NCBI GenBank assembly: GCA_964423875.1
Contig: CAYRGS010000002.1
Span: forward strand, 14,062-78,061
DNA: 64,000 bases
Source of the DNA: an uncultured bacterium
GTDB lineage: Bacteria; UBA8248; JACPRG01; G963555815
Direction of reading: 5' to 3'
Shown: one piece after another, positions 29,966-60,442 of the stretch
Layout: the number at the start of each line of letters is the position of its first letter
Position numbering within the stretch: position 1 is the first letter of the stretch
The notes under the pieces: generated by a model
Told to the model about the DNA's origin: nothing
What the model saw: only the letters and a program-made list of their open reading frames with translations
Databases searched by the model: none
Program-made: the position numbers and the translations under genes

Positions 29966-30084
29966 GCGCGCTCCTCCGGTTTCGGAGACTGACAATCCAG
30001 AAATCCTATGTAATACAATGGCTTAATCCTTATCACACGCCATTTTCAGGTGTCAAACGGAGGGGCTCCTTAGTTATTCCCAGT

Positions 30085-30109
30085 TTCGGCACTTGAAGAA
30101 ACAAGGCCC
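30085..30109 (-). terminator. Candidate intrinsic terminator (minus strand)
   Basis: The minus strand reads GCCCC-TTC-GGGGC followed by CTTGTTTCTTC. It lies downstream of the sulfatase-like gene and the 30200-30358 remnant. Confidence 0.4.
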
Positions 30110-30199
30110 CGAAGGGGCAGTCGTGATCCCTTCACTGAGGGGAACAAAGGGCTTAAGTCTTTTGTTAATAAAAATGGACCCAATTGCTGTTTAGCCCTA

Positions 30200-30358
30200 T
30201 TAGCCTCGATTACTCGTCCGCTCCAGGTCTGCCACGCCCTGGGCCGCGATGTCCACGGTGAGCTGGCCGTTGAAGATGGTCTGGTCGTGGGTTTCGACTT
30301 CGCCATGGTGGATCAGGAAGATACGGTCCGCGCTCTCGTCAATCTGCAAGAGGTGCAT
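30200..30358 (-). pseudogene. Possible 3' remnant of a native gene (ABC-ATPase-tail-like) truncated at the island junction
   Basis: My translation is MHLLQIDESADRIFLIHHGEVETHDQTIFNGQLTVDIAAQGVADLERTSNRG*. The high-GC composition changes abruptly to low GC at about 30340. The ADRIxLIHxGxV pattern resembles the C-terminal end of ABC ATPases. This is weak evidence. Confidence 0.2.
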
Positions 30359-39950: not shown

Positions 39951-41108
39951 TCACTTGAGCTCCCCGATGACCTCCCGGGCGATCAACAGCCTCATGATCC
40001 CCGTCGTTCCCTCGAACAGCCTGGCCCCGCGCGCGTCGACGTAGAGCCGGGCGATCCGGGAGGCCTCGAAATAGCCGATCCCGCCGTGAATTTGAAGGGC
40101 CGCGTCCGTCACTCGGCCCGCCGCCTCCGACGCCAGCAGCTTCGCCATGGCCGCTTCGGTCCCCCAGGACCGATCCCGCGCCTTCAGCCACGCGGCGCGC
40201 AGGGTCATGAGCTCGGCGGCGTCGATGGCCGTCGCCATGTCCGCCAGAGAGAACACAACGGCCTGGAGGCTAGCCAGCGGCCCGCCGAACTGTTCCCGCG
40301 TCTTCGCGTGCAGAAGCGCCAGGGCCAGGGCCGCCCGGGCGATGCCCACGCATTGGCCCGCGATCCCCAAACGCCCAATTCCGACGGCTGTCTGAATCAA
40401 GTCGAAGCCGGCGCCTTCCTCCCCCAGCCGGTCTTCGGCCCGGACAAAGCAGTCTTCGAAGCGATGAACCGTCATGTTGGCCGCGCGCAGGCCGAGGGTC
40501 CGGGGCATCAGCTCATGCCGCACGCCCTCGGCGCGCTTGTCCACCATAAAAAACGTCAGCCCGCCGCGCCGGTCCTCCGAGGTCCGGGCGCACACGAGGG
40601 CGACTCCCTCATACGCTCCGTTGGACACGAAAACCTTCTCCCCGTTCAGAACGTATCCGCCACGGGCTTTTGTGGCCGAGGTTTCGATCGCCGTCACGTT
40701 GGACCCCGCCCGGGTTTCGGTCAGGGCGATGGACCCGATTTTTCCGCCCGCGACGTGGTCGGGCAGAATCCGCTGTTTCTGCTCATCGTCGGCCGCGCTT
40801 TGAATCGTGTCGCAGAACTGGTTGTTGATGGACATCACAAACCCGAGCGCCGGGGAGGCGGCGGCGACCTCCGCCACGGCCAGGACCCAGCCCACCGAAT
40901 CGATGCCGCTCCCTCCGCACTCGGCCGGGGCGACCATCCCGAGGAACCCCTGCTGGGCCATGCGCGTGAGGAAATCCTCCGGGATGCGCTCCTCGCGATC
41001 CCAGGTCTCGGCCTCGGGCGTCACACACTCCTTCACGAATGCCTTCGCCAGGTCCCGGATGCGGGATTGCGTCTCGTCGGGCTGAAAATCCAATCGGGTC
41101 CTCTCCAC
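39951..41108 (-). CDS. Acyl-CoA dehydrogenase
   Basis: 385-aa ORF with ACAD N, middle and C-terminal blocks (..GSIALTETRAGSNV.., ..QIHGGIGYFEASRIARLYVDARGARLFEGTTGIMRLLIAREV). Confidence 0.9.
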   Translation of the reverse strand: MERTRLDFQPDETQSRIRDLAKAFVKECVTPEAETWDREERIPEDFLTRMAQQGFLGMVAPAECGGSGIDSVGWVLAVAEVAAASPALGFVMSINNQFCDTIQSAADDEQKQRILPDHVAGGKIGSIALTETRAGSNVTAIETSATKARGGYVLNGEKVFVSNGAYEGVALVCARTSEDRRGGLTFFMVDKRAEGVRHELMPRTLGLRAANMTVHRFEDCFVRAEDRLGEEGAGFDLIQTAVGIGRLGIAGQCVGIARAALALALLHAKTREQFGGPLASLQAVVFSLADMATAIDAAELMTLRAAWLKARDRSWGTEAAMAKLLASEAAGRVTDAALQIHGGIGYFEASRIARLYVDARGARLFEGTTGIMRLLIAREVIGELK

Positions 41109-41270
41109 CAGAACCGGGACGCCGTCAACATGCCAACATCATACCCCCCAGGTTACCAGATGGCGGATGTCCGCTTAAGCGTTCCGCGTGCGTATAATGG
41201 GCGACGCCCGAACCCGGGAGGGGGCCGCAACCGCCTCGAACCGAACCACCCGGCCGGAAAGAAAGGCTTC

Positions 41271-43277
41271 ATGGAAGCGACCCGCGAGGTTTTCGGCAAC
41301 ATTCCAGGCGGTGAATGGATCTACCTGATCGCCCTCGCGTCGGTGGGGGTCTTCGTCTGGGGACTCTGGCGGCGCGTCCGCCTCTGGCGCATCGGAAAGC
41401 CGGCGGACCGCCTCGACCGCTGGGGCGAGAGAGTCCGGGGCCTCATCGTCTACGCGTTCGCCCACAAGGGGTTCTTTCGCGAACGGCTTCCGGGCGTCGG
41501 ACACCTCTTCCTCTTCATCGGCTTCGTCGCGGCCCTCATCGCCACGACGATCATCGCCATCGAGAAGGACCTCGGCTATCTGGGGCTCCGAGTCGATTTC
41601 TGGAAGGGGGGCTTCTACCTCTGGTACTCCCTCATCGGCGACCTCTTGATGGCCCTGGGCGTGGCGGGCCTCATCCTCCTCGGGTTCCGGCGCTACGTCC
41701 TGCGCCCGCCCCACCTGTCGGAGAGCTGGGACGACGCCGCCGCGCTCTTCGGATTGATCGGGGTCTTCCTGACCGGCTTTCTTGTCGAAGGTCTTCGGAT
41801 CGGCGCGACCGAGCTCGGCCCACACCCCGAGTGGGCGGTCTGGTCGCCTGTCGGGTACGTTCTGGCCCGGGGGCTCTCCGCCGCGATCCCGTCCGAGGCC
41901 GGCCTCCTCGCCTGGCACCGCGTCTGGTGGTGGATTCACGTCGTCCTCTCCTTTGGCCTCATCGCCTACATGGGCTGGTCGAAGCTCAGCCACGCCGTCT
42001 TCGCCCCCCTGGGGATCCTGTTCCGGAACCTGGACGCCCGAACCGAGCCCGCGCTCTCATACATCGATTTCGAGGACGAGACGGCCGAATCCTTCGGCGT
42101 TTCGAAGCTCAAGGAATTGACTTGGAAGGACCTCCTGGACGCCGACGCCTGCACCGGGTGCGGGAAGTGCGACGCCGCGTGCCCGGCCCACCTGAGCGGA
42201 ACGCCCCTGTCGCCCAAGAACATCATCCTAGGCATCCGCCGCCACATGACCGACCACGGCCCCTCGGAGGAAGCGCCCTCCCTCGTTGAGACGCTGAACC
42301 CCGCGGCCATCTGGGCGTGCCGGACGTGCGGCGCCTGCCAGGAGGCCTGCCCCGTCCACATCGAGCACATCCCGAAGATCATCGAGGCCCGCCGCCACCA
42401 GGTCCTGATGGAATCCAAGATGCCCGAGACGGCCCAGACCTTCCTCAAGAGCATGGACGAGCGGATGCACCCCTGGAAGGGAACCCGGTTTTCGCGCACG
42501 GACTGGATGGAGGAGCTCGACGTTCCTCTGCTCTCGGAAAAGGGAAGCGCGGAGATCCTCTACTGGGTCGGCTGCACCTCCGCCCTGGTGGACCGGAACA
42601 TGAAGACCGCCCGCGCCCTGGTGAAAGTCTTGAAGGCGGCGGGGGTGGATTTCGCCGTTCTCGGGGCCGATGAGGTCTGCACCGGCGATCCCGCCCGGCG
42701 GGCCGGCAACGAGTACACCTACCAAATCCTGGCCCGGAAGAACATCGAGACGCTGGAGAAGCACGGCGTTAAAAAGGTCCTCACCCACTGCCCGCACTGC
42801 TTCAACACCTTCAAGCGGGAATACCCGCAGCTAGGCGGCAAGTACGAAGTCGTCCACCACGCCGAATTCGTCGCCGACCTCCTCCGCACGGGGAAGATTC
42901 AGTTATCGGGTCCGGATATCGGACGCATCACGTACCACGACTCGTGCTACCTGGGCCGGCACAACGGCGTCTACGACGCGCCCCGCGACGTGGTCTCCTC
43001 CCTTCCCGGGGCCGAGGTCAGAGAGATGAAGCGCAACCGCGCCAACGGCCTGTGCTGCGGCGCCGGCGGGGGCTTCGCCTGGATGGAGGACGGCGAGGCG
43101 GACGACCGGGTGAACCGCATCCGCGTCCAGGACGCCCTGGACGCCGACGTCAACACCGTCGCCGTCGCTTGCCCCTTCTGCATGCAGATGTTCGAGGACG
43201 GCATCAAGACCAAGAACGCCGACGACCGGCTCGTCGTCAAGGACCTCGTGGAGCTGGTCGCCGACGCGCTGGAATAA
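41271..43277 (+). CDS. Membrane-bound Fe-S oxidoreductase (N-terminal multi-TM domain + 2x[4Fe-4S] + two CCG domains; HdrD/GlpC-like, Etf-associated type)
   Basis: The start is MEATREVFGNIPGGEWIYL at the ATG at 41271. The part of ORF 40086..43277 upstream of this is antisense to the ACAD gene. The protein has 5-6 TM helices, then CTGCGKCDAACP and CRTCGACQEACP, then CCG-type motifs (VGCTSA.., HCPHC, HDSCYLGRHNG, CCGAGGG, CPFC). Confidence 0.85.
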   Translation: MEATREVFGNIPGGEWIYLIALASVGVFVWGLWRRVRLWRIGKPADRLDRWGERVRGLIVYAFAHKGFFRERLPGVGHLFLFIGFVAALIATTIIAIEKDLGYLGLRVDFWKGGFYLWYSLIGDLLMALGVAGLILLGFRRYVLRPPHLSESWDDAAALFGLIGVFLTGFLVEGLRIGATELGPHPEWAVWSPVGYVLARGLSAAIPSEAGLLAWHRVWWWIHVVLSFGLIAYMGWSKLSHAVFAPLGILFRNLDARTEPALSYIDFEDETAESFGVSKLKELTWKDLLDADACTGCGKCDAACPAHLSGTPLSPKNIILGIRRHMTDHGPSEEAPSLVETLNPAAIWACRTCGACQEACPVHIEHIPKIIEARRHQVLMESKMPETAQTFLKSMDERMHPWKGTRFSRTDWMEELDVPLLSEKGSAEILYWVGCTSALVDRNMKTARALVKVLKAAGVDFAVLGADEVCTGDPARRAGNEYTYQILARKNIETLEKHGVKKVLTHCPHCFNTFKREYPQLGGKYEVVHHAEFVADLLRTGKIQLSGPDIGRITYHDSCYLGRHNGVYDAPRDVVSSLPGAEVREMKRNRANGLCCGAGGGFAWMEDGEADDRVNRIRVQDALDADVNTVAVACPFCMQMFEDGIKTKNADDRLVVKDLVELVADALE

Positions 43278-48823: not shown

Positions 48824-48899
48824 GGGGGATTAGCTCAGCTGGGAGAGCGCGTGGTTCGCAATCACGAGGTCACCGGTTCGATCCCGGTATCCTCCACCA
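48824..48899 (+). tRNA. tRNA-Ala (anticodon CGC), CCA encoded
   Basis: Hand-folded cloverleaf. The acceptor is GGGGGAT/ATCCTCC with G3:U70. The D arm is GCTC-AGCTGGGA-GAGC. The anticodon arm is CGTGG-TTCGCAA-TCACG. The variable region is AGGTC. The T arm is ACCGG-TTCGATC-CCGGT. The discriminator is A, followed by CCA. Confidence 0.9.
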
Positions 48900-49341: not shown

Positions 49342-51396
49342 TCATTCAAGGGATGTGCTTGGCCGTGCCCACGTGAGCCTCCCCCTCCCCTTCTCGCCGA
49401 TGTGGTAATTGTGGCAGGTCAGACAGCCCTCCGGGGCCTCCGCCTTTTTGTGACAGGCGGCACACTCGGCTTTTTTGATCCGCTTGAAGTTCCCGTTGAA
49501 TTTCGCGGGATTGAAATCCTTGTACAGGTCCGCTGATTTGCGATCCGGGCGATGGCACGTGAAACACCTTTTCCCGTCGCCCAGGGTGAGGTGCGGCGCA
49601 TGGATGAAGCGGTTGAACCCCTTTTCATCGCTTCTCGGCCGCTTCTCCTCCCAGTTCACCCGGCGGACGCCCTTGACCTCGTCAACGCTGTGGCACTTCC
49701 CGCACATGTCCGGGAACGAGGCAGCGTCGGTTAAAGCGGTGAAAACCTTCTCCAGTGCCGAACCCCTCCGGCCCTTGACACTGAGGTCCAACCAGCCGCG
49801 AACGAAGCGGTCCGCGTGACCCGTGGGCCGATATATCAGCGAGAAGTCCTCCCGGCGCCAGGCGTCGGCGGCGCTCGACCCCTCGTCAGAAGAAGCTTTC
49901 GCCTGTCTGTCTTTCTTACCTCCCTTCCTGCCATCGGAATTTTCCTTCTCTTCCTCCACCTTCCAGCGGGACATCTCGGATTCAAGCTTGGGCAGCCAGG
50001 ACCGCTGGGCCGCGCGGACGATCTGAACGGGCATTTGCATGATAAGTCCAAGGGTCTCGCCTTCGCTCAATGACCGTCCAAGCGCCTTCACCAGTCGGTC
50101 ATTGAACCCCTTCTGCCCCTTTATTGACAGGTCAAAGAGGAGCGCCTTCACCAGCCGGGCGAGCCGCCCGGCCGCGATTGCTTGCTTCTCCTCGTCATCG
50201 TCCTCCAGCGCCGCTTCCACCTTCGCAAAGCCGGGGTCCGACGCGAGAAGAAAACGCATAAAAGCGGTGATTTCCTCCTCCTGGGCCTCCTCCGGCCATT
50301 CCCCCACATCCACATTGGCATCTCGGAGGGTGTCGAGATCAAGGGCTGGCAACGTGAAGATGGGGATGCCCTCGGCGCGAATATCCGCCTCATGGCAGAA
50401 GGCGCAGCTTTCTCCGAACCCTTTCATCAACATCTCGCCGCCCGCGGGGGACCGCTCGTGGCAGCGCCCGCAAGGGAGCGGATCGCCCTTTTTGAGCAGG
50501 CCTTTTTTTCTGAAGTGTTTGGGGTGGGAAACGTGATCGAAGATCAGCCGGGTCCGCCGCCCATATGGAAAACGCGTGAATTCAGGGTGACTTGTCCCAA
50601 AGTCGCGATACCGGTAGACATGGCATGCTTGGCATCGTCGATCGTCCATGGCCGTCAAGTCGAATTTCCTGCCCCGGTGTTCTTTATGGCACACGGCGCA
50701 GGCCAACTTCGCCCCGCCGGCTTGCCCCCCCTTCAAATCAAGCAAGGAGGCCAGGAAGAGGGCCGGTGAACCGCCGGCCGGGGGAAACCTCTTTCGGATT
50801 TTCGAGGTGATCCGAGCCAGCTTCTCGGGCGAGGACGTGTGCGACCGCATGGCCTGATCGCCCAGGGTGTGGCAACCCAGACAAAGCCCGCTGTCATCCC
50901 GCGCGGATCCGGACGTCAGGGCGGCCTGGACCCACTTCGTCAAGCCCCCTTGAAACACCGTGTGGCAGTTCTCGCAGCGCCGTCCCAGCGTGCCGTGGTG
51001 CACAGTCAACGGGCCCGGCGAGATGAATTCCCGACCGGCATCGCCGGAGAGGAGCAGGAAGATGAGACCGAACATGAGCCCCAACGCCCAGCGGGAGAGC
51101 GCCCCGCGGCGTGCTCTTGCGTTCAGAACCGGCCGGCAGGGCGGGACGACACTCGAGCAAGCACCGTCGGGCAGCGGGCCCGCATCGCACGCGCCGCCGA
51201 AGGCGTTCGCACGCGCGCACTTCCACCGGGCCCCGTTTTTTTTGGGCGTGCACTCGCGCGCGGCCATGCACCGGCCCTTGTGATCCGGTCCGATGCCGCA
51301 GGCCTTCCCCTCGGCCGCCCATCCGCACACCCACTTCTGGGTCGGCCGCTCGTAATGGGATTCAGCGAACCCGTAATCTTGCAGGCGCCGGCTCAT
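49342..51396 (-). CDS. Decahaem c-type cytochrome with N-terminal Cys-rich region and single TM anchor
   Basis: Ten CXXCH motifs: CENCH, CLGCH, CAVCH, CQACH, CGRCH, CAFCH, CGKCH, CFTCH, CAACH, CLTCH. Eight Cys lie in the first about 90 aa. The sequence then reads ARARRGALSRW followed by the TM segment ALGLMFGLIFLLL. The ATG overlaps the upstream stop (ATGA at 51393-51396). Confidence 0.85.
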   Translation of the reverse strand: MSRRLQDYGFAESHYERPTQKWVCGWAAEGKACGIGPDHKGRCMAARECTPKKNGARWKCARANAFGGACDAGPLPDGACSSVVPPCRPVLNARARRGALSRWALGLMFGLIFLLLSGDAGREFISPGPLTVHHGTLGRRCENCHTVFQGGLTKWVQAALTSGSARDDSGLCLGCHTLGDQAMRSHTSSPEKLARITSKIRKRFPPAGGSPALFLASLLDLKGGQAGGAKLACAVCHKEHRGRKFDLTAMDDRRCQACHVYRYRDFGTSHPEFTRFPYGRRTRLIFDHVSHPKHFRKKGLLKKGDPLPCGRCHERSPAGGEMLMKGFGESCAFCHEADIRAEGIPIFTLPALDLDTLRDANVDVGEWPEEAQEEEITAFMRFLLASDPGFAKVEAALEDDDEEKQAIAAGRLARLVKALLFDLSIKGQKGFNDRLVKALGRSLSEGETLGLIMQMPVQIVRAAQRSWLPKLESEMSRWKVEEEKENSDGRKGGKKDRQAKASSDEGSSAADAWRREDFSLIYRPTGHADRFVRGWLDLSVKGRRGSALEKVFTALTDAASFPDMCGKCHSVDEVKGVRRVNWEEKRPRSDEKGFNRFIHAPHLTLGDGKRCFTCHRPDRKSADLYKDFNPAKFNGNFKRIKKAECAACHKKAEAPEGCLTCHNYHIGEKGRGRLTWARPSTSLE

Positions 51397-52229
51397 GGAT
51401 TTCCAACCGAGAAGGCGTAGATGAAGACCACGTGTTCAAGGGCAAGAATCAACAGGCAGTAGGTCAGCGGAACATGGAAAAACAGCCACCGCTTCAGCAT
51501 CGCCTGCAGGGCGTGCTGGTGGTCTAGGTGATCCTTTTGCCGCACGAGCTCAACCAAGGCGTCCAGGTGGCACTTTTGCTCCTTGTTCAGATAACGCCGC
51601 AGTCCGGTGCTCTCTTCCAAAAGAGCGTGGAGGGGGCCATTCGACTGCAAGAGGTGCAACCAGAAGTTGCGCGGACCGGAAAAGAAAGACAAGAGCCGGT
51701 CGGCGTAGAAGTCCGCAATCGTCGTCGACTTCCCCTCCTCGGCGGATCGAACGACCAGGGCCTCCGCCTCCTCCCGCAACCGGCGGCGAAGCTCGGGGAT
51801 TCGCTCGAAGATGACCTCTTCCCCATGACGGGCAAGACGGGGCGCGAATCGTCGCGAGATTCGAAAACCGAACACGCCGCTGGCCGCCGCGCCCAGATAC
51901 AACAGGGCCAGCGTCATCTCCAAAGGCCCGTTCGGCGCTCGGAACCCCACGTGAAGCAGGAACAGGAGAATCGAGAACCACCCGATATTCAAGTGGACCT
52001 GGAGCCAGACGGAAGAAGACCCAAGCGGAAGAAAGGGAAGTTTTTTGCGAACATTATAAATGGCGAGGAAAACAATGGCCGCCAGCAGAACCGAGCCGCT
52101 CAGAAATTGAGAGCGCAGAAGAGTCGAAGAATATGCGTGATCAACCGCAACCGCGACAAGGGAGAAAACGACCAGGATCAACAAACTGAGCCACCGGCGG
52201 GCGGCAAAGGTCATCACCGGTTGACCCAC
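51393..52229 (-). CDS. Integral membrane protein, candidate dihaem b subunit (two H-x13-H helices)
   Basis: The ORF has five predicted TM segments. VHLNIGWFSILLFLLHV and FHVPLTYCLLILALEHV each carry two His residues 14 positions apart. An alternative ATG at 52214 gives a TGATG overlap with the upstream gene. Confidence 0.65.
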   Translation of the reverse strand: MGQPVMTFAARRWLSLLILVVFSLVAVAVDHAYSSTLLRSQFLSGSVLLAAIVFLAIYNVRKKLPFLPLGSSSVWLQVHLNIGWFSILLFLLHVGFRAPNGPLEMTLALLYLGAAASGVFGFRISRRFAPRLARHGEEVIFERIPELRRRLREEAEALVVRSAEEGKSTTIADFYADRLLSFFSGPRNFWLHLLQSNGPLHALLEESTGLRRYLNKEQKCHLDALVELVRQKDHLDHQHALQAMLKRWLFFHVPLTYCLLILALEHVVFIYAFSVGNP

Positions 52230-53941
52230 TTCAAAAGCTCATCCCCATCCCGCAAGTCCATGCGAATCAACGCATCGTGCGGGCAGGCCCGCTGGCAGGC
52301 GGGGCCGCCCATCTGGTCGATGCACAGGTCGCATTTCGTCGCCCTCTCAATAGGAAGGTTCGTTTCCTGGTCCAAGAGGAGGTTTCCTTTCGGGTCTTGG
52401 ATCGGGACCATCCGGATGTTGTCATAGGGACAACTGTTCGCGCAGGTCGAGCACCCGATGCAGGTGACGTCGTTGATAACGACCTGCCCCCCATCGCGGT
52501 CGCGATGGATCGCCCCTGTCGGGCAACCGATCATACACACCGGATCGATGCAGTGCATGCACGCGTTCGCGATCATGTAACGGCCGTCCCGCTTTCCGTG
52601 TCGGATGAAGCGCGGGTTGTTGTCGTGCGTCTCCGCGCAGGCCCGGACGCACTCGTCGCACCGGGTGCATCGATCCAGGTCGATAACCATGGCGGCCGTA
52701 CCGTTGATGAAGCGGTTGTCGACAAGGAACTCCTGGAAGCCGATTTCAAGCTCGGCGCCCTTTCGCGCGTCCCGCCACGCCGACCGGGCGGCCGAACGAG
52801 GCGTGACCCTCGGCGGAAGCATCTCCTCCGGGATCGACGGCAGGACGTACTTCTCGATGATGGCCGTCGGCACGCGCAAAATGCCGACGTATCCCACGGC
52901 CCGCAAGGTTTTTTGAAGAGAAACCGCCTCGCCGAATTGCCAGTTGTGGGCGATTTCGTTGAAACCGAACGTCGCCCCCCGGCCCAGATAGCTGACCGTC
53001 CGGTGGCCACTTTCGATGACCTCGGAGAGTCGGGCGAACCCCGTGCGGATCAAAATCAACCCATCGGCGTAGTGGCCCTCCTGCGCGATGACGGGTTCGT
53101 GCTCAAGCCGCTCGGCCGCCTCTTTGGCGGCCAGTGACTTGAACGTTCCATACCAGTCGAAGGTCCCATACGTCTCGAAAAGGACGCTGTCCGCGACCAC
53201 CTTTTGGTCTTCCTCATTGAGACGCCGGAACTCGGGCAGCTCATTCAGGTAGACTTTCAGGCTGCGCTCCCGATAGAGCCGATCGATGTATTTCCGCACC
53301 CCGTCGTCCCAGCGCCGGATGTCGCGCAGCCCCTGCCAGCGCACCTCGAGGAGTATGCACTCGCCGTCGGCGAATACCGTCGCCGTCCGCGGGTGCCGGC
53401 CCAACGCCGCGAGCTCGCCGAACAGCGTGCCCACATGGAGAGGGGTGTTTTTGTATCGATCCAAAATGGCGGGGACGTCCTGAAGGAAAATACGCGTCTC
53501 GCGGCCCGCCCCCGACTGGGCGAAACCGCCGGACCTCTTGTGTTTCACCCACTCCCGGACTTCGGGAAGCCGGGAGTTCGACCAAAGCTGGCCGAGAGCC
53601 CGGAAGAATCCTTTCCCCTGGGGTTCGCGCCGTCCGAGGAGCGACTCCTCCAGAGGATCGATGGCGACGCGGACGGACCCATCCAGAACCAGAAAGGCGG
53701 AATGTCCGTAATCTCCCCGGCGCACGATGATCTCGCCGTTATGGCACCGAAGAATGCGCGATTCGTTCTTCAGGATGTCGCGAAACGGCGCGCCCGAGGG
53801 GAAGTTGGCGGGATCGACTTGATCGAGCGGTGGCTTCGTCAAGAGCCAATCGATGTCCGCGTCGGACATTTCGGCCGAGAACGGCTCGTCCCGCATCTGA
53901 GGGGGCTGTATGGCTAGGGGTTCAGCCGGCATGCTACGCAA
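52214..53941 (-). CDS. Protein with two cyclic-nucleotide-binding-like domains fused to a four-cluster [4Fe-4S] ferredoxin module (DmsB/NrfC/PsrB-like)
   Basis: cNMP domain 1 is ILRCHNGEIIVRRGDYGHSAFLVLDGSVRV..LFGELAALGRHPRTATVFA, with an intact FGE..R-T-A phosphate-binding cassette. Domain 2 is VIAQEGHYADGLILIRTGFARL..GATFGFNEIA, with a degenerate cassette. The Cys motifs are CTRCDECVRAC, CMHCIDPVCMIGCP, CIGCSTCANSCP and CDLC..CQRACP. There is no twin-arginine or hydrophobic signal at the N-terminus. Confidence 0.85.
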   Translation of the reverse strand: MRSMPAEPLAIQPPQMRDEPFSAEMSDADIDWLLTKPPLDQVDPANFPSGAPFRDILKNESRILRCHNGEIIVRRGDYGHSAFLVLDGSVRVAIDPLEESLLGRREPQGKGFFRALGQLWSNSRLPEVREWVKHKRSGGFAQSGAGRETRIFLQDVPAILDRYKNTPLHVGTLFGELAALGRHPRTATVFADGECILLEVRWQGLRDIRRWDDGVRKYIDRLYRERSLKVYLNELPEFRRLNEEDQKVVADSVLFETYGTFDWYGTFKSLAAKEAAERLEHEPVIAQEGHYADGLILIRTGFARLSEVIESGHRTVSYLGRGATFGFNEIAHNWQFGEAVSLQKTLRAVGYVGILRVPTAIIEKYVLPSIPEEMLPPRVTPRSAARSAWRDARKGAELEIGFQEFLVDNRFINGTAAMVIDLDRCTRCDECVRACAETHDNNPRFIRHGKRDGRYMIANACMHCIDPVCMIGCPTGAIHRDRDGGQVVINDVTCIGCSTCANSCPYDNIRMVPIQDPKGNLLLDQETNLPIERATKCDLCIDQMGGPACQRACPHDALIRMDLRDGDELLKWVNR

Positions 53942-53969
53942 TCTTGCGATTCGGGGGGAGATTCTTGAG

Positions 53970-55016
53970 CTATGGCGCTGGAGTCCCCTTGTACGTATCC
54001 GCTTGGGGAATCATCGGATCCAGGGCCGCCCACGCGCCGCCGTTGGAGGGATCGGACAGCTTCTTCGCCGCCTCGGCGACCTTCTCGGCGGCCGCAAGGA
54101 GGGCGTCTGAATGATTCGGCTTGAGCTCCACCGCGGACACGGCGGCCAGGATCGCGTCGATCTCGGTCACCTTGACCAGCCCGGCCGCCCGCTTCAGGGA
54201 CTCTATTGCGGCCGCCACACGCACCGCCATCCTCTGGGCGTAAACCCCATCGGCGCTGGCCTTGGCCAACCCGCGCAGGTTGTACTCCAGTTTCACCGCT
54301 TGGCCGACGAGAAAGAGAACTCGCTTGACCTCCACCGAGGCCTCGGCGTTCTGCTTTCCTTCCGAGGCGACGAAGTTGTGGAGGACCTCGCCCTGCGACC
54401 ATGCAACGAGCTCGAAATCGCTTCCGGGCGGGTGGCTCCCCACGTTCACCAGCTTCTCATTGGGGACGGTGTGGCACCCCAAACAGCCCGAGGCGAGACG
54501 GTAAATCTCAACGGGCCGGATCATGCCGGCCGCTTTTAATTTCGAGAGCCGCATTTCTCTGTGCTCGGGGGCTTCATTTTTTTTCGCTGTGTTGTCGTTG
54601 TCCCCGAATTCCTGATGAACGTCCACCCATTCAACGGCCGCCCCGTGGCAGGACTCGCAGGAAACGCCCGCAATGGCTTTCGTCCTATTCCCTCTCGGAA
54701 TCGAGGTGTAGTGGCAACCCGCACAAAAGCCCCGTTTGATGAGCCTGACGTTCATCGCCTTGGCGATCTTTCGGCTCACCTTGCGCCGCGGATTTTTCGT
54801 CAAGCTCCGGAACCCTTTGGCGTGCTTTGACTCCTTCCACGCCTTCACCGCAGACTCATGGCACTGGCCACATTTTTTGGGTCCGACCACCTTCTTCGGG
54901 TCCGGAGCGGCAGTGGCTGTCCCCGCCAGTGCGCCGCACACCAGACCCAAGGCGGCGGCGATCCAAAGGCGCCGTGATCCCAAACTCACCAGAAAATATT
55001 TTCCGCTAAACATCAC
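53970..55016 (-). CDS. Tetrahaem c-type cytochrome (periplasmic, c554-like N-terminal part plus helical C-terminal domain)
   Basis: The signal peptide is LWIAAALGLVCGALAGTATAA. The CXXCH motifs are CGQCH, CAGCH, CESCH and CLGCH. Confidence 0.85.
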   Translation of the reverse strand: MMFSGKYFLVSLGSRRLWIAAALGLVCGALAGTATAAPDPKKVVGPKKCGQCHESAVKAWKESKHAKGFRSLTKNPRRKVSRKIAKAMNVRLIKRGFCAGCHYTSIPRGNRTKAIAGVSCESCHGAAVEWVDVHQEFGDNDNTAKKNEAPEHREMRLSKLKAAGMIRPVEIYRLASGCLGCHTVPNEKLVNVGSHPPGSDFELVAWSQGEVLHNFVASEGKQNAEASVEVKRVLFLVGQAVKLEYNLRGLAKASADGVYAQRMAVRVAAAIESLKRAAGLVKVTEIDAILAAVSAVELKPNHSDALLAAAEKVAEAAKKLSDPSNGGAWAALDPMIPQADTYKGTPAP

Positions 55017-55254
55017 TGGTCCCTCTATCGTTTCCGCGGGATATCAAAGCCTGAAACCGGGCATTTTTTGGTATCCATCCTCAAATGTTAAACTGCCCGT
55101 TCCGCAATTTCGGCCCCCGAGGGTGCGCTGTCGGGTCCCCGACCAGCCGTTGAAAGAGCACGAATTATGCCACAAATCCGCGCCCGCGCGCGAGCCGTTT
55201 AGCCCCAGTGCCTCATCAGGCACGCATGCAGGGGAATGTTCAAGAACCAAACGC

Positions 55255-56619
55255 TCACGCCTCCAACGTCAGATCGGCCTTGGGGACGGAAATACAAGTC
55301 AGACAGGATCCTTCCTCAGGAATCGCGCCGGGCTCCTGAAGGTAGTCCACCTCCCCTTCTTTCACAGCCGTAAGACAGGTTCCGCAATTCCCCGCCTGGC
55401 AGCCGGAATTGATGACGACCCCATTGCTGAGGGCGAAGTCCAGGAGGGAGCCGATCGAGGGATCCCAAGGAAGGGTTTTGTCGCTTTTGGCGAACGTGAC
55501 TTCAATCCCAGGCCCAGCTTCCACCTCAGGCTCTCCGGGCGCGGCCCCCTTCTTTTTCACGCTGGCGCGTCCGAAGGACTCGAAATGCACGCTGGCTTCG
55601 GGAACCCCCCATTTTGCGAGCTGCTGCGTGATCGCGTCCATCATGGGACCCGGCCCGCAGATGTAAAAGTCATAGTTGCTCGAGGGAAGCAATTGCTTGA
55701 AGAGATCTACGCCCACCCACCCGGCGTGGCAGTGGTCCCCGCCCTCCACGTCGCCCTCCTCAGGATCGCTGTAACACACGTGGAGGCGGACGTTCTCGTT
55801 CTCGGCCGCGATCCGTTCGAGGTGCTCTTTGAAGATGTACTCCTTCCCGTTTCGCACACCCAAGAACAGCCACGTCTCGCGCCGCGATCCCGACTTGACA
55901 ACGGCGTTCAACATACTCAGAAGCGGGGTGATCCCGATCCCGCCGGCGATCAAGACGATCGGACGGGGTTCGCTCATGTCGAGGTAGAAAATCCCCCTCG
56001 GCGCCTCGACGTCAAGGATATTGCCCTCTTTCAGTAGATCGTGGAAGAAGCCGGAAACCACCCCGGGTGGGGGAGCCTTTTTGATGGTAACGCGGTACTG
56101 GTTGGAGGAATTCGAGCAATCCGACAGCGAATAGCACCGGACCACCTTCTGCTCGGCGCTTTGGCCCTCCCCTTGGAGGTTGAGCGCAAATGTCAGATAC
56201 TGACCCGGTTTAAACGAGGGCAGCGGCTTTTCATCGTGGGGCTTGAGGTAAAAAGAGCAAACTCCTGGGCACTCCGAGACCTTCCGTTGGATCCGGAATT
56301 TCCTGTAGCCGGGCCAGGCGTGGTCACCGCTCGCAACATCGCCGGCGACGCCTTTGGCAATCTCGACCTCGTAGCGGAGCAGCTTGCGCGCGAGCCTTTG
56401 CTGGCCCCTGTCGTGGGCCAGCCGATTCAGCGACGAAAACAAGAGGACCGCAACCTGGATCAGGACCGCCGCAACGATGATGGCGCCCGCGATTTGGATG
56501 ACGTTGAGCGATGGCGTCAAGCCCGCCCTCCCGCCGATGTAATGCCCATAAACGGAATGAAATCGGAACGCGTTCGCGGAAAGAACGAAAGCGCCCAGCT
56601 CGTTGTCCCTCCAGTGCAT
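55255..56619 (-). CDS. Membrane-anchored FNR-like oxidoreductase (FAD/NAD(P)-binding + C-terminal plant-type [2Fe-2S] ferredoxin)
   Basis: The TM segment is IAGAIIVAAVLIQVAVLLF. RCYSLS is the RxYS FAD motif, GGIGITP is the NAD(P) motif, and CQAGNCGTCLTAV..CLTC is the 2Fe-2S motif. Confidence 0.8.
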   Translation of the reverse strand: MHWRDNELGAFVLSANAFRFHSVYGHYIGGRAGLTPSLNVIQIAGAIIVAAVLIQVAVLLFSSLNRLAHDRGQQRLARKLLRYEVEIAKGVAGDVASGDHAWPGYRKFRIQRKVSECPGVCSFYLKPHDEKPLPSFKPGQYLTFALNLQGEGQSAEQKVVRCYSLSDCSNSSNQYRVTIKKAPPPGVVSGFFHDLLKEGNILDVEAPRGIFYLDMSEPRPIVLIAGGIGITPLLSMLNAVVKSGSRRETWLFLGVRNGKEYIFKEHLERIAAENENVRLHVCYSDPEEGDVEGGDHCHAGWVGVDLFKQLLPSSNYDFYICGPGPMMDAITQQLAKWGVPEASVHFESFGRASVKKKGAAPGEPEVEAGPGIEVTFAKSDKTLPWDPSIGSLLDFALSNGVVINSGCQAGNCGTCLTAVKEGEVDYLQEPGAIPEEGSCLTCISVPKADLTLEA

Positions 56620-57065
56620 CTTATATTTGTTTCTTTCTGAATACCATCAGAGATTTACAGCGGAACCGACGGCCGGGAGGGGGGAAGGGGCGGATTTCGG
56701 GTTTTTTCCACCATGACTCAGTGTTCTGTGATTCACATTCAGGCCGAACCCCCGCCAGTGATTGCGTTTGAACCTAGTCATCGGGAGGAAAATGGTCCGC
56801 AGGGAGAACAAAAGTTCCGCGTAGGTTGTCGATTCTTGAGTATATCCCCCGCCCGCGGCCCAGGCGGGAGGCGCGGAAAGCGCGTGATGTCCCAGAGAAA
56901 ACCGGCCACCAACACGGCCAAACGCGGAGGACAGCCCAACGCCTCCGGTGCGGATTCGAAATTGCATAATTCACCAGATGCATTACAATACACAAGAGGA
57001 AGACAACCGGCTGGAGGCCCGCACCCCAATCCAACATCCGGGCTTCCGGCCGCAGGGAGGTGAGA

Positions 57066-58928
57066 ATGCCACAAAAACGCTCGGTCGGAATCAGAGACAT
57101 ACTCGGCGTCGCGGCGGCGCTGGGGGTTTCATCCTTCCTGATCGCGACACCCGCGCGGGCCGCCTCCCCCACCGCGGAAAAACCGGCCAAGCCGAAGGTG
57201 GAAAAACCCCTCCAAGGTCCGCGCCTGGCGCAGGGAGTCAAACCGGCAAAGTCAAACGGTGCGGAGACGGACGCCCAGGCCGCCCACGCGGCCCTCTTTG
57301 CCGAAAGCCGGTATCCCTCGGCGGCGACGTGCGGGTCCTGCCATCCGCAACACTACAAAGAGTGGTCGGTCTCACAGCATTCATATTCTCAACTGAGTCC
57401 GATGTACATGGCTATCAACAACTTTCTCAATTCAGTGACCAGCGGGACCATGGGAGACTTCTGCCTACGCTGCCACAGCCAGGTCGGCGCGAACCTCGGC
57501 GAATCGTCATTCATCTCCAACCTCGAGCGGCATCCTACCTCCCGGGAAGGCATCACCTGCGTGGTTTGCCACCGGACCAACAAGGTATACAACAAGGTCA
57601 GCGGACGCCTCGCCCTGGTTGAGGGGAACCTCCTTCAACCCGTCTATGGCCCCACCGGCAACAAAGAGCTCGCCCGTGTTTTGAAAGAGGGGCGGTTCGA
57701 AACGAAGGATATCAAGAAACCGGGTCGGAAAATCCACGAAAAGGTGGTGAAATTTTCTGCGCTCACCAGCTCGACTTTCTGCGGCACCTGCCACGACGTC
57801 ACCCTGTTCAACGGGTTTCGGTTGGAGGAGGCCTTCAGCGAATACAGGGTCTCACCGGCCGCCGGGCGCGGCGTCTCCTGTCAGGACTGCCACATGGGCA
57901 AGGTCCAAGGGGTCAACGCGGGCTACAACCGCGGACCCGGCGCGGTTGTCGACGGCAAACCGACCCGGACGCGGAAGATCACCAACCACACGTTCGCCGG
58001 GCCGGACTACTCGATCATCCATCCGGGGATCTTTCCGCACAACACCGAGGCGCAGCAAATGGCCACGCTCCGGGAATGGCTCAAATTCGATTACAAGGCG
58101 GGCTGGGGAACGGACAAGTTCGAGGACGACGTTGGTGACGACGACAAGTTCCCGGAGCGGTGGGAGTCGGTCGACGACCGTTACGAAGCGCGTGAAATCC
58201 TCGACGAACAATTCAAGCACCTCGAATGGGCGCGGGAAAAGCGGTTGGAGCTGCTACGCAACGGATACCATCTCGGCGCCATCGAGACCCTGAGCGCGGA
58301 TCGGGAAGGCATCGGCTTCCGGGTAAAGGTGAAAAACGCCACCGACGGCCACAACGCGCCGACCGGCTTCACCGGCGAGCGGTTGGTGTGGCTCCAAGTA
58401 ACGGTCACGGACCGCACGGGGGCCGCAATTTTCCGATCGGGAGATCTGGACCCCAACGGCGACCTGCGCGACGTCGAATCATCTTACGTCCACAACGGTG
58501 AGCTGCCACTGGACCGCCAGCTCTTCAACCTCCAGTCGCGCTTCGTGGTCAAGAACATTCGCGGCGGCGAGCGAGAGCGGGTGATCCCCATCCCCTACCC
58601 CATCAGCGCACTGCCTTTCGTCCGGCCGTCCATCCTGTCCCTGATCCTCACGGGCGAGCCGACGACGGAGCGCAACCACCGAAAAGGCATTGAGCCCCTA
58701 GGACACCGGTGGGCGGAATACCGGATCCCGGGCAAGGCCCTCACTGGCAAAGCCCCCTATCAAGCCAACGTCAAGCTGATGGCCGCCATGATACCAATCA
58801 ATCTGGTTGCGGCCGTTCAAAGCGTGGGTTTCGATTTCAACATGAGCGCCCGCGCCGTCGGCGACGCAGTGGTGGCTGGGCACGAAGTCATCTGGGAAAA
58901 AAATGTCACCTTTAAGATCGGTCCTTAG
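57066..58928 (+). CDS. Pentahaem c-type cytochrome with large C-terminal non-haem domain
   Basis: The signal peptide is VAAALGVSSFLIATPARAA. The CXXCH motifs are CGSCH, CLRCH, CVVCH, CGTCH and CQDCH. The C-terminal block is KNATDGHNAPTGFTGERLVWLQVTVTD. I prefer the ATG at 57066 after GGGAGG to the GTG at 57060. Confidence 0.85.
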   Translation: MPQKRSVGIRDILGVAAALGVSSFLIATPARAASPTAEKPAKPKVEKPLQGPRLAQGVKPAKSNGAETDAQAAHAALFAESRYPSAATCGSCHPQHYKEWSVSQHSYSQLSPMYMAINNFLNSVTSGTMGDFCLRCHSQVGANLGESSFISNLERHPTSREGITCVVCHRTNKVYNKVSGRLALVEGNLLQPVYGPTGNKELARVLKEGRFETKDIKKPGRKIHEKVVKFSALTSSTFCGTCHDVTLFNGFRLEEAFSEYRVSPAAGRGVSCQDCHMGKVQGVNAGYNRGPGAVVDGKPTRTRKITNHTFAGPDYSIIHPGIFPHNTEAQQMATLREWLKFDYKAGWGTDKFEDDVGDDDKFPERWESVDDRYEAREILDEQFKHLEWAREKRLELLRNGYHLGAIETLSADREGIGFRVKVKNATDGHNAPTGFTGERLVWLQVTVTDRTGAAIFRSGDLDPNGDLRDVESSYVHNGELPLDRQLFNLQSRFVVKNIRGGERERVIPIPYPISALPFVRPSILSLILTGEPTTERNHRKGIEPLGHRWAEYRIPGKALTGKAPYQANVKLMAAMIPINLVAAVQSVGFDFNMSARAVGDAVVAGHEVIWEKNVTFKIGP

Positions 58929-59023: not shown

Positions 59024-60442
59024 ATGCGCCATTCGCCTAGACGCTTGCTTGGGCCGTTTCTTTCGGCGACGCGCGACGTCGCCCGCCTTGCGCTCGTCCT
59101 CCTTCTATTCGGTGCACTGTCGGCTTGCGACAGTCTGTACCCGTTGGGGGAGAAATCGAAGGTCAGTCGGCTTTCCGACAAACCCACGCGGTTCCTGACA
59201 AAAGGAGACATCCCGGACCGCCCCCCCCTCATCCTAGAGTTGGGCGATCCCTTCCTGGCCCCGGGCAATCTGGGCGCCGGCTTCGAGCTGCCGACAGGCG
59301 CCGTGTGGCAACCGAGGCTCTGGGTATTCGGGACTCTTCGGACCGCCCTTCAGACATTCGACAACGGCGTCACCCCCCCCACCCCGGAATGGGCGAACCG
59401 TTTTGACCTGTTCGCCAACCTCCAACTGACGGGAACCGAAAAAATCATCCTCGGCATCCGTCCCCTGGACAAAAACCGATTTAACGCCTTTTCCGGCTAC
59501 GCCATTGAAGAGGACCGCGTCAAAAACGAGCTCAACGCGAACATCCGCACCTTCTTCTTTGAGGGTGACTTCGGCAGCCTGTTTCCCAATCTCGACAAGC
59601 AGGGATTCATCCCCATCGACCTCGGCTTTTCGCTTGGCCGCCAGCCCCTCCTATTCCAGGACGGCATTCTGATCAACGACACCGTCGACTCGCTGGGACT
59701 CGTCCGCAACAACGTTCGCCTTCCCGGCGTGTCGAACCTGCGCATATCCGGCGTTTATGGATGGGACGAGCTCGACAGCCGCAACGACCGCCAGGCCTAT
59801 ATGTTGGGGATGTTCCTCGCGGCGGACATGCCGATCAGCACGGTGGAGCTCGACGCCATCTACGTCGGCGAGAACCGGCCCGAGGGGGGCTCTTTCCATG
59901 CCGGCGTCGCCACGACCCAGAGAATCGGGCACATCAGCACCACGTTTCGGGTCCTCGGCTCTTATTCCGAGGCTGAGGACAACGCCCGCGTCGCCGACGG
60001 TGTCCTGTTGACTTCCGAGGTGTCGTGGACGCCGCAATCCTCGGACGACATCGTCTACATCAACTCCTTTTTGGCGATCGACAACTTCACGCAGGCGGGA
60101 CGGGAGCCGATTGTCGGAGGTCCCTTGGCGGCGCTCGGAATTCTCTTCGCCTCGCCGAACCTCGGAAACCATCTGTCCGAGCTCAGCGGCCGCGCCAACG
60201 ACATCGTGGGCGGCGCAATCGGGTACCAGGCATTCTGGGACAACCACCGCCGCAACCTGGTCTTGGAGCTAGCGGGTCGGGTGGACACAAGCGGCGTCGG
60301 CCCCAGCGACTACGCCTTGGGCTTTCAATTCCAGCAGGCGTTTTTCCGGCGGATCCTTCTCCAGGTCGACAGCTTCTACGCCGTGCAGGAAGATCGGGAC
60401 GACGCCTACGGGGCCCGCACGGAACTCCTCGTCCAGTTTTAA
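59024..60442 (+). CDS. Putative outer-membrane beta-barrel lipoprotein
   Basis: The lipobox is LFGALSAC. The sequence shows alternating amphipathic strands and ends ..ARTELLVQF with a C-terminal Phe. No family name recognised. Confidence 0.6.
   Translation: MRHSPRRLLGPFLSATRDVARLALVLLLFGALSACDSLYPLGEKSKVSRLSDKPTRFLTKGDIPDRPPLILELGDPFLAPGNLGAGFELPTGAVWQPRLWVFGTLRTALQTFDNGVTPPTPEWANRFDLFANLQLTGTEKIILGIRPLDKNRFNAFSGYAIEEDRVKNELNANIRTFFFEGDFGSLFPNLDKQGFIPIDLGFSLGRQPLLFQDGILINDTVDSLGLVRNNVRLPGVSNLRISGVYGWDELDSRNDRQAYMLGMFLAADMPISTVELDAIYVGENRPEGGSFHAGVATTQRIGHISTTFRVLGSYSEAEDNARVADGVLLTSEVSWTPQSSDDIVYINSFLAIDNFTQAGREPIVGGPLAALGILFASPNLGNHLSELSGRANDIVGGAIGYQAFWDNHRRNLVLELAGRVDTSGVGPSDYALGFQFQQAFFRRILLQVDSFYAVQEDRDDAYGARTELLVQF

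Follow-up and report, generated by a model that had tools for sequence, protein, structure and literature searches.

A ptdABCDEFG-type gene cluster in an uncultured bacterium and its possible role in electron transfer across the cell envelope

The DNA considered here is a stretch of 64,000 nucleotides (the window) from an uncultured bacterium of the GTDB lineage UBA8248; JACPRG01; G963555815 (assembly GCA_964423875.1, contig CAYRGS010000002.1, positions 14,062 to 78,061 of the forward strand). It contains seven genes for multihaem cytochromes c, iron-sulphur (Fe-S) proteins and membrane proteins (Table 1), and these correspond to all seven parts of the ptdABCDEFG operon, named after its penta-, tetra- and decahaem proteins by Elbon et al. 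(bioRxiv 10.1101/2023.11.21.568154): gene content, haem counts and the order C-D-E-F-G are the same. The locus matches this named, uncharacterised cluster, of which it would be a new instance, an assignment made from matching architecture and taxa.

The ptd genes, their order and their distribution

In the text available from the preprint, PtdA is described as a pentahaem protein with a beta-sandwich, PtdB as a porin, PtdC as an FAD/NAD(P) oxidoreductase, PtdD as a tetrahaem protein, PtdE as a protein with cyclic nucleoside monophosphate (cNMP) and 4Fe-4S domains, for which two 4Fe-4S clusters are listed, PtdF as a ferric-reductase-like transmembrane (TM) protein and PtdG as a periplasmic decahaem protein. 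Nitrospirales, Planctomycetes and Alphaproteobacteria are given as carriers, the cluster is said to be common in nitrite oxidisers, and high transcription of ptdAB is given for oxygen-deficient-zone bacteria that express nod (Elbon et al., bioRxiv 10.1101/2023.11.21.568154). As far as this text goes, the seven gene products, the haem counts and the taxa are the same as those found here, whereas ptdAB lies in line with the other genes there and is divergent from ptdCDEFG in the window. The same text does not mention the eight-cysteine domain of PtdG, the cyclase neighbours or an electron route. Relative to it, the following are new: the four-cluster count of PtdE and its tandem cyclic-nucleotide-binding (CNB) fold with a conserved cassette, similar to those of the protein kinases PKG and PKA; the invariant histidine geometry of PtdF; the eight-cysteine domain of PtdG; the division of the cluster into core and accessory genes; and the recurrent cyclase neighbours. 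A literature search under other possible names gave no description of the cluster besides that of Elbon et al., and a metagenome paper (PMC11995701) mentions unexplained multihaem clusters in metagenome-assembled genomes (MAGs) of Nitrospinaceae.

A preliminary description of the window, made from its letters alone, had presented ptdD, ptdE, ptdF and ptdG as an undescribed four-gene unit. The four minus-strand open reading frames (ORFs), with their haem, Fe-S and histidine motifs and their overlapping junctions, are all present where it placed them. The real set is larger, comprising seven genes, since the upstream ptdC (77 of 84 loci) and the ptdAB pair (39 of 84) had been missed, and it already bears a name.

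Table 1. Features of the ptd locus, with positions counted from the first letter of the window (aa, amino acids)
Feature	Position	Strand	Description
ptdA	57060..58928	+	secreted pentahaem cytochrome c, 622 aa, 5 CxxCH; divergent from ptdC
ptdB	59024..60442	+	probable outer-membrane beta-barrel, 472 aa
ptdC-ptdA divergent intergenic region	56620..57059	.	440 bp
ptdC	55255..56619	-	N-terminal TM anchor, FNR-type FAD/NAD(P)H module, C-terminal plant-type [2Fe-2S] domain; 454 aa
ptdD	53970..55016	-	predicted periplasmic tetrahaem cytochrome, c554-related, 348 aa, 4 CxxCH, signal-like N-terminus
ptdE	52214..53941	-	predicted cytoplasmic protein; two cNMP-binding domains and putative four-cluster [4Fe-4S] ferredoxin module; 575 aa
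ptdE CNB-A	53312..53794	-	residues ~50-210; canonical phosphate-binding cassette, ~55-residue insertion
ptdE CNB-B	52838..53236	-	residues ~236-368; non-canonical, lengthened cassette
ptdE Fe-S module	52247..52699	-	residues ~415-565; 16 Cys
ptdF	51393..52229	-	five-TM candidate dihaem cytochrome b; 278 aa from GTG, 273 aa from ATG at 52214
ptdG N-terminal domain, predicted cytoplasmic	51106..51396	-	residues 1-97; eight conserved Cys
ptdG TM anchor (residues ~98-118) and predicted periplasmic decahaem domain	49342..51105	-	10 CxxCH

The junctions of the minus-strand genes were read directly. A gap of 28 nt separates ptdD from the TTG start of ptdE, for which an alternative ATG at 53932 would leave a gap of 37 nt and give a product of 572 aa, the typical length of the homologues; ptdE and ptdF meet in TGATG, or overlap by 16 nt when the GTG start is taken, and ptdF and ptdG meet in ATGA. 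The full ptdG ORF (49342-51396) encodes 684 aa, with ten CxxCH motifs following a single TM helix. A promoter and terminator scan gave match counts equal to those of shuffled sequence and is uninformative on operon limits; one weak sigma-70-like match lies between ptdC and ptdD (55091-55063, minus strand).

The distribution of the cluster was followed with PtdE, which has more than 5000 database matches, with identities of 50-66% across phyla except for the nearest relative (94%). A scan of species-representative genomes gave at least 599 matching stretches, from which the best 80 loci were kept, and conservation was assessed in a sample of 84 loci from many phyla. In this sample ptdE occurs in 84 loci, ptdF in 79, ptdC in 77, ptdG in 76, ptdD in 74, and ptdA and ptdB, within 10 kb, in 39 each, ptdB always adjoining ptdA. 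As the absences of core genes fall mostly at contig ends, C-D-E-F-G is a near-constant core and A-B an optional outer-membrane module carried by about half of the loci. The order from C to G is the same in loci of Nitrospirales, Planctomycetota and Alphaproteobacteria, and the overlaps are a family trait, with median spacings of -16 nt between ptdE and ptdF and -4 nt between ptdF and ptdG. The four-gene arrangement first noticed, recurring with its order and overlaps in dozens of loci of different phyla, is therefore not due to chance. In most other loci A and B stand in line upstream of C, unlike the divergent ptdAB of the window.

The nearest named relatives are Nitrospinota MAGs (PtdE identity 59-66%; 62% and 59% among the best 80 loci). 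Carriers belong to Nitrospinota, Planctomycetota, Verrucomicrobiota, Alphaproteobacteria, SAR324, Acidobacteriota, Gemmatimonadota, Methylomirabilota and others, and include the cultured Hwanghaeella grinnelliae, Ferruginivarius sediminum and Candidatus Uabimicrobium amorphum. The context of three PtdE homologues showed a reductase of 420-450 aa with FAD_binding_6, NAD_binding_1 and Fer2 domains directly upstream. In one Nitrospirales MAG two more genes lie further upstream, one for a multihaem protein of 604 aa and one for a protein of 501 aa that Pfam does not recognise.

Some loci depart from this plan. In Verrucomicrobiota loci such as L028, L042, L044, L054, L058 and L077, upstream of ptdC and on the other strand, there is a gene for a PtdD-like tetrahaem protein, and PtdG, although short (~560 aa), still has 10 CxxCH. 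PtdAB is absent from the surrounding 10 kb, and a cyclase gene follows 1-3 kb downstream, with a CHASE2 domain in L054, the sole locus checked against Pfam, and genes for large secreted proteins recur nearby. Moreover, in a close relative represented by a 935-kb public contig, whose PtdF is 92% identical to that of the window, gene calling divides PtdE into P0258 (116 aa) and P0265 (448 aa), the consequence of either a frameshift or an assembly error.

Properties predicted for the Ptd proteins

PtdC matches the Pfam families NAD_binding_1 (4.6e-20), Fer2 (1.2e-9) and FAD_binding_6 (5.6e-6), as well as the Hmp reductase module of NCBIfam (1.1e-72). In the PDB it matches flavohaemoglobin (3ozu, 2e-45) and phthalate dioxygenase reductase (2pia, 1e-25), whose overall layout, with a C-terminal [2Fe-2S] domain, it has. 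The motifs R161-x-Y163-S164, G227/G229/T231/P232 and C321-G322 and the cysteines C407/C412/C415/C442 are at least 90% conserved among 72 homologues. PtdC would supply the cytoplasmic electron donor absent from the four-gene account.

For PtdE, the two cNMP-binding-like regions noticed earlier match the Pfam model cNMP_binding (PF00027) with 67.1 bits against a cut-off of 27.5 (1.4e-18, two stretches), and Fer4_11 is also matched above its cut-off. The four cysteine groups of the ferredoxin module (425/428/431/435, 461/464/469/473, 494/497/500/504 and 537/540/549/553) are 96-100% conserved among 84 homologues, and these 16 conserved cysteines argue that PtdE should hold four [4Fe-4S] clusters rather than two. 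When the PtdE profile was compared with the PDB, the best match was to HycB3/HycB4 of the hydrogen-dependent CO2 reductase (HDCR; 7qv7, 5.9e-22), and the further matches, among them 6cz7 (3e-17) and 7z0s (7e-15), include ArrB, NrfC and the HycB subunit of formate hydrogenlyase. The module is nearest to cytoplasmic polyferredoxins of the HycB type and not to DmsB/NrfC-type ferredoxins, which partner molybdoenzymes in the periplasm. The N-terminus of PtdE contains no readable signal peptide, twin-arginine motif or hydrophobic stretch, and this lack of an export signal points to a cytoplasmic protein.

The AlphaFold2 model of PtdE is of moderate quality (predicted local distance difference test, pLDDT, of 69, low at residues 105-149). 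For its residues ~45-370, Foldseek gave the tandem CNB pairs of PKG I-beta and the PKA regulatory subunits as matches (4z07, 1rl3, 1cx4 and others; E from 1e-16 to 1e-15, probability 1.00), with 8e-17 for CNB-A/B of PKG I-beta bound to cGMP, and the fold of CNB-B matches the second CNB domain of the same proteins. CNB-A has a canonical phosphate-binding cassette, which reads F174-G-E-L-A-A-L-G-R-H-P-R185-T-A-T here and FGE(L/I)AAL-x-R-x-P-R-T-A-T in the family; G175, E176 and R182 are found in 84 of 84 homologues, F174, A179 and R185 in 83, and T or S at position 186 in 74. The glutamate and the arginine of such cassettes contact the ribose phosphate of the cyclic nucleotide. We know of no fusion of a four-cluster ferredoxin to tandem CNB domains outside ptd. 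The Planctomycetota MAG OFTM357 encodes a PtdE variant of 677 aa (L011, P0081) with an extra N-terminal FHA domain (PF00498), which hints at phospho-threonine-dependent regulation in some lineages. Genes for Ser/Thr kinases recur in the flanks of six loci.

A link to cyclic nucleotides is also suggested by the neighbourhood of the cluster in other genomes. When the flanking ORFs of all loci were clustered to find recurrent neighbours, the most recurrent family outside ptd was the class III adenylate/guanylate cyclases. PF00211 was confirmed in all seven of the cyclases tested, combined with CHASE2, with 7TMR-DISM, with zinc-ribbon/AAA or with no sensor module. The place of the cyclase gene varies with the phylum: in Planctomycetota it is transcribed divergently from ptdC, in SAR324, Kiloniellales and Gemmatimonadota it precedes ptdA, and in Verrucomicrobiota it lies downstream of ptdG. 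Moreover, the residue before the conserved x-x-G-D is a lysine in five of the seven sequences, which presumably favours ATP as the substrate of a class III cyclase and is a lead only; cAMP appears more likely than cGMP as the ligand of PtdE. Gating by cAMP or cGMP had been proposed in the preliminary description; it has been strengthened by the conserved cassette and by these cyclases, and we still infer it.

PtdF gave a better AlphaFold2 model (pLDDT 83.7), which has five TM helices and, on the predicted cytoplasmic side, a helical insert of ~110 residues. The four membrane histidines to which attention had already been drawn, H79-x13-H93 on TM3 and H252-x13-H266 on TM5, are invariant among 28 homologues, as are W75, W248 and H192. 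Lysine and arginine cluster in the N-terminal segment and in the loops that follow TM2 and TM4, which would place the N-terminus inside and make TM3 parallel to TM5. In this geometry the pairs H79/H252 and H93/H266 could each hold one haem b, near opposite faces of the membrane. Cytochrome b and ferric-reductase domains likewise have H-x13-H on each of two helices. The Pfam matches obtained below the cut-off were DUF4405 in 18 of the 28 members, Ni_hydr_CYTB in 8 and Ferric_reduct in 6 (best E 0.0035), all of them dihaem b families.

PtdG combines two different parts. Residues 1-97 contain two four-cysteine repeats (C24/C33/C43/C49 and C60/C70/C80/C87) of the pattern W-x-C-x(8-9)-C-x2-G-P-x(3-4)-G-x-C-x(5-6)-C-x-P, each cysteine being 99-100% conserved among 71 homologues, of which 70 have at least eight cysteines ahead of the TM helix. 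No Pfam family was matched by this domain. A search of 1.84 billion representative proteins gave 603 matching clusters; in the best 150 of these matches the domain forms the N-terminal end of the protein or lies close to it (residues ~1-110, with two exceptions), and the proteins are mostly of the size of PtdG, the rest being shorter and probably fragments. A basic stretch before the helix and a haem domain that needs export point to a cytoplasmic location of the eight-cysteine segment, which is probably a metal site for zinc or Fe-S. Beyond the single N-in helix, six CxxCH motifs, a variable insert of ~230 residues and four further CxxCH motifs follow. Ten motifs are found in 71 of 76 homologues, whose lengths range from 541 to 1317 aa, and nine non-motif histidines are conserved for the ten haems. 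PtdG had no match among PDB sequences.

Both of the smaller cytochromes match the Pfam family Cytochrome_C554, with 1.3e-16 for PtdD and 3.6e-8 for PtdA. In the PDB, PtdD matches the Nitrosomonas cytochrome c554 (1bvb, 4.9e-10), while the best match of PtdA is the pentahaem cytochrome c552 of Thermochromatium tepidum (5ze8, 4e-8), a structure that is also cited in the preprint text available. Four CxxCH motifs are found in 57 of 67 PtdD homologues and five in 36 of 40 PtdA homologues. Moreover, further conserved histidines (H65, H134, H195 and H213 in PtdD, six in PtdA) are sufficient for bis-His ligation of every haem. Since they suffice for six-coordinate haems and no open catalytic site is evident, PtdA and PtdD, and likewise PtdG, look like wires rather than catalysts. 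The C-terminal half of PtdA is non-haem. The 14 c-haems counted earlier on the periplasmic side stand for PtdD and PtdG, and PtdA raises the total to 19 CxxCH motifs. Finally, PtdB is matched by neither Pfam nor NCBIfam. The last residue is F or Y in 34 of 38 homologues, a feature of outer-membrane proteins, and PtdB is a probable outer-membrane barrel.

A possible electron route, its competitors and its relatives

From gene content, motifs, conservation, synteny and fold resemblance, we infer which cofactors the subunits carry and how these subunits meet, which way the electrons flow and where they end, and that cNMP is bound and acts on the flow, and we read Ptd as a quinone-independent, NAD(P)H-fed electron conduit across the envelope that would be regulated by a cyclic nucleotide, with a probability of roughly 0.5. 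In such a conduit PtdC, anchored in the inner membrane, would oxidise cytoplasmic NAD(P)H via its FAD and then its [2Fe-2S] cluster, and electrons would then run along the four [4Fe-4S] clusters of cytoplasmic PtdE. The membrane would be crossed through two bis-His haems b in PtdF, H79/H252 on the cytoplasmic side and H93/H266 on the periplasmic side, and the next carriers would be the ten haems c of membrane-anchored PtdG and the four of soluble PtdD. Where PtdAB is present, electrons would pass on to the outer-membrane module of pentahaem protein and barrel and so to an acceptor outside. The tandem CNB domains of PtdE would tie this flux to a cyclic nucleotide made, in other genomes, by the neighbouring sensor cyclases. 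A membrane potential that is negative inside helps electrons outward and hinders their way in, so that redox span and potential would both favour outward flow and oppose an inward flow to NAD(P)+; as outward flow is strongly downhill and would dissipate reductant and membrane potential, a switch on PtdE would make sense. The earlier interpretation, which lacked the NAD(P)H-linked input and the outer-membrane module, is partly supported and incomplete.

Several observations weigh against such a conduit. The available text of the preprint calls the function of ptd "completely unknown" (Elbon et al., bioRxiv 10.1101/2023.11.21.568154). As to the regulation, CNB-A carries a conserved insertion of ~55 residues that is poorly modelled, and the cassette of CNB-B is non-canonical and lengthened (FG-x-x-E-I-x-H-N-W ... 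L-R-A-x-G-Y), so that the ligand of PtdE may be other than a cyclic nucleotide. Moreover, the presence of a class III cyclase gene within 10 kb in 20 of the 84 loci is a raw count rather than a measured enrichment, and tblastn with the cyclase domain found no cyclase gene in the 64-kb window. As to the membrane step, PtdF reaches the threshold of no haem-b family and has no Pfam or NCBIfam match above the cut-off; its model gave nothing at E <= 0.001 in a Foldseek search of the PDB, where the top matches were unrelated helical proteins, and its profile gave chance matches only among PDB sequences. With no match by fold or profile, membership of a solved haem-b family is not established, and a quinone site within PtdF is possible. 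Furthermore, the eight-cysteine domain of PtdG has no explained role in the model. Finally, the gap between ptdC and ptdD (55017-55254) measures 238 nt, from which it follows that ptdC may be transcribed separately from ptdD onward.

Among the alternatives, one keeps the outward complex and changes its acceptor, which would be periplasmic nitric oxide (NO), nitrite, hydroxylamine or peroxide, reduced via PtdD or PtdA in a detoxification or nitrogen-cycling role. The kinship of PtdD to the Nitrosomonas cytochrome c554 and of the PtdC module to Hmp, the NO-detoxifying flavohaemoglobin, speak in its favour, together with the frequency of ptd in nitrite oxidisers and the high transcription of ptdAB in the nod-expressing bacteria, both as given in the preprint text available; in addition, about half of the loci have no PtdAB within 10 kb, hence the core may stop in the periplasm. 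We nevertheless consider this acceptor unlikely, given the six-coordinate haems that the conserved histidines of PtdD and PtdA would allow, the lack of an evident open catalytic site and of an NrfA-like CxxCK motif, and the wide spread of the cluster in Verrucomicrobiota and Planctomycetota for which no tie to the nitrogen cycle is known.

Just as improbable is a quinone-coupled PtdF, which would connect the complex to the quinone pool. It would act there as an NAD(P)H:quinone reductase or else, in the manner of CymA, ImcH or CbcL, oxidise quinol and supply the cytochromes, PtdC and PtdE then being a side input or a regulator. The weak matches of PtdF homologues to Ni_hydr_CYTB and DUF4405, whose known members FdnI and HyaC react with quinones, lead in this direction, and an Fe-S subunit beside a dihaem b subunit recalls FdnH-FdnI. 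However, these matches are sub-threshold, no quinone-site motif could be identified in PtdF, and the Ptd proteins match no NrfD, CymA/NapC, ImcH or CbcL model. Furthermore, the tight translational coupling of PtdF to the anchored PtdG, and an NAD(P)H reductase that is constantly present, are what one would expect if haem b passed electrons straight to haem c.

Less likely again is electron uptake, in which donors outside the cell or in the periplasm (Fe(II), Mn(II), minerals or reduced humics) would feed PtdAB, PtdD and PtdG, and electrons would pass inward through PtdF and PtdE to let PtdC reduce NAD(P)+. Porin-cytochrome modules such as MtoAB and PioAB are bidirectional, and ptd is frequent in chemolithoautotrophs in need of reductant, e.g. 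Nitrospinota and Nitrospirales. Inward transfer would nevertheless be opposed by the membrane potential and run uphill to NAD(P)+ at -320 mV, with no proton-coupling module present, and many carriers belong to lineages usually deemed heterotrophic (e.g. Verrucomicrobiota and Planctomycetota). Finally, that PtdE is mainly a redox and ligand sensor, with clusters that report the redox state and CNB domains that bind a metabolite, controlling PtdF and PtdG allosterically while electrons come from another source, would suit the classical regulatory use of tandem CNB domains, the FHA-bearing variant and the non-canonical CNB-B, but is similarly improbable, since the four clusters of the HycB/DmsB type form an electron-transfer chain in every solved relative matched and the co-conserved PtdC is a matching donor.

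The NAD(P)H-fed conduit was then compared with known systems, and the ptd architecture is unusual: as the preliminary description had surmised, the cluster as a whole is homologous to no characterised complex. There is a likeness in principle to the NADPH oxidases (NOX), ferric reductases (FRE) and STEAP proteins, and to MsrQ with Fre, in which cytoplasmic NAD(P)H feeds an FNR-type flavin module, two stacked bis-His haems b and an acceptor on the far side. PtdF has their H-x13-H spacing and two parallel TM helices with histidine pairs, haem binding being predicted. In Ptd, unlike these systems, the flavin and haem-b modules are separate proteins, between which a [2Fe-2S] domain and a CNB-bearing four-cluster ferredoxin are interposed. 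Moreover, in comparison with NOX, FRE and STEAP, PtdF has five TM helices instead of six, as well as a cytoplasmic insert, and the output consists of up to 19 c-haem motifs. Membership of PtdF in the ferric reductase superfamily (PF01794) was considered and not retained, Ferric_reduct being below the cut-off, the helices five and no relative found by fold or profile.

Ferredoxins of the DmsB/NrfC/PsrB type are periplasmic and come with Tat (twin-arginine translocation) export, a molybdoenzyme and an NrfD/PsrC membrane partner. PtdE has four cysteine motifs with 16 cysteines in common with DmsB, NrfC, PsrB and FdnH, as well as with HycB3/HycB4 of HDCR and HycB of formate hydrogenlyase, and in FdnH-FdnI a four-cluster subunit is already known to dock on one with two haems b. 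The ptd cluster differs from these systems in having no molybdo- or hydrogenase partner and no NrfD/PsrC subunit, and PtdE differs from FdnH and NrfC in that it has no Tat signal and would be cytoplasmic, i.e. on the reversed side. An assignment to the periplasmic type was rejected, as there is no Tat signal, no NrfD and no molybdopterin gene in the cluster, here or in the 84 loci. The scores of PtdE against NCBIfam equivalogs are all far below the cut-offs. With the regulatory subunits of PKA and PKG, PtdE has in common the tandem CNB fold and the canonical CNB-A cassette, whereas its CNB domains are joined to an Fe-S wire and not to a kinase or inhibitor sequence, and carry the ~55-residue insertion in CNB-A and, in the lengthened cassette of CNB-B, a conserved HNW.

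With respect to porin-cytochrome conduits (MtrCAB, MtoAB/PioAB, Geobacter Ext/Pcc), the likeness consists in a multihaem gene and an outer-membrane barrel gene beside periplasmic multihaem cytochromes; the differences are that PtdA is pentahaem, that the input would be NAD(P)H-linked instead of a quinol dehydrogenase, and that PtdAB is dispensable in about half of the loci. The models of MtrA/DmsE, MtrB and Ext gave weak, sub-threshold matches to Ptd proteins at most, and an MtrAB-type complex was set aside (for the DmsE family, PtdA scores 30.7 bits where 192 are required, and PtdB is matched by no model). TmcABCD, HmcABCDEF and DsrMKJOP join periplasmic multihaem c to cytoplasmic Fe-S via a membrane cytochrome b. 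They differ from Ptd in their HdrD-like CCG Fe-S proteins and NarI/NrfD-type membrane subunits and in having neither an NAD(P)H reductase nor CNB domains; this type was rejected as well, as Ptd has no CCG domain, PtdF resembles neither NarI nor NrfD, and the scores for HmcA, HmcB, DsrO, QrcA and QrcC are far below their cut-offs. No model of a CymA/ImcH/Cbc-type quinol dehydrogenase was matched by Ptd proteins in the Pfam/NCBIfam scan, and this type was likewise discarded.

If the conduit is real, it would be an unusual form of electron export, fed by NAD(P)H and not by the quinone pool, in which a second messenger switches the protein directly. A more far-reaching and tentative idea, to which we give distinctly less credence, is that Ptd is a widespread, envelope-spanning bacterial counterpart of NADPH oxidases and ferric reductases, a non-respiratory, quinone-free wire switched by cAMP or cGMP. 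Eukaryotic NOX and ferric reductases likewise dissipate the membrane potential by outward electron flow. The wire would then consist of FAD, [2Fe-2S], four [4Fe-4S] clusters, two haems b and up to 19 haems c, and lineages that are mostly aerobic (Nitrospinota, Verrucomicrobiota, Planctomycetota and marine Alphaproteobacteria) would use it for a regulated release of reductant, for instance to acquire iron by reduction or to form superoxide outside the cell. Its switching would be timed by extracytoplasmic sensor cyclases with CHASE2 or 7TMR-DISM, and the eight-cysteine domain of PtdG would be an undescribed cytoplasmic metal site, part of the switch or of the wire. The ptd family is large, and among the abundant, little-studied environmental lineages that carry it are nitrite oxidisers and inhabitants of oxygen-deficient zones; a role in iron or manganese reduction, extracellular superoxide or nitrogen oxides would bear on marine and soil redox cycling. 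The cultured carriers make the model testable.

Other features of the window

A tRNA-Ala gene (anticodon CGC, 48824-48899, plus strand), the sole Rfam/ARAGORN match in the window, lies ~440 nt past the 3' end of ptdG. The GC content falls to 0.464 at 30001-32000, against ~0.61 elsewhere in the window, and this dip overlaps a sulfatase gene (30339-32378, minus strand; Pfam Sulfatase 4.9e-30), a segment that may be acquired DNA. At 40086-43277 (plus strand) a protein of 1063 aa is encoded, the large N-terminal part of which matched no Pfam family at the 1e-5 threshold and the C-terminal part of which has two CCG domains and a 4Fe-4S dicluster domain, like HdrD or GlpC. Finally, the gene at 25174-27651 (minus strand) encodes the large subunit of a molybdopterin hydroxylase of the xanthine dehydrogenase / aldehyde oxidase / CoxL family.

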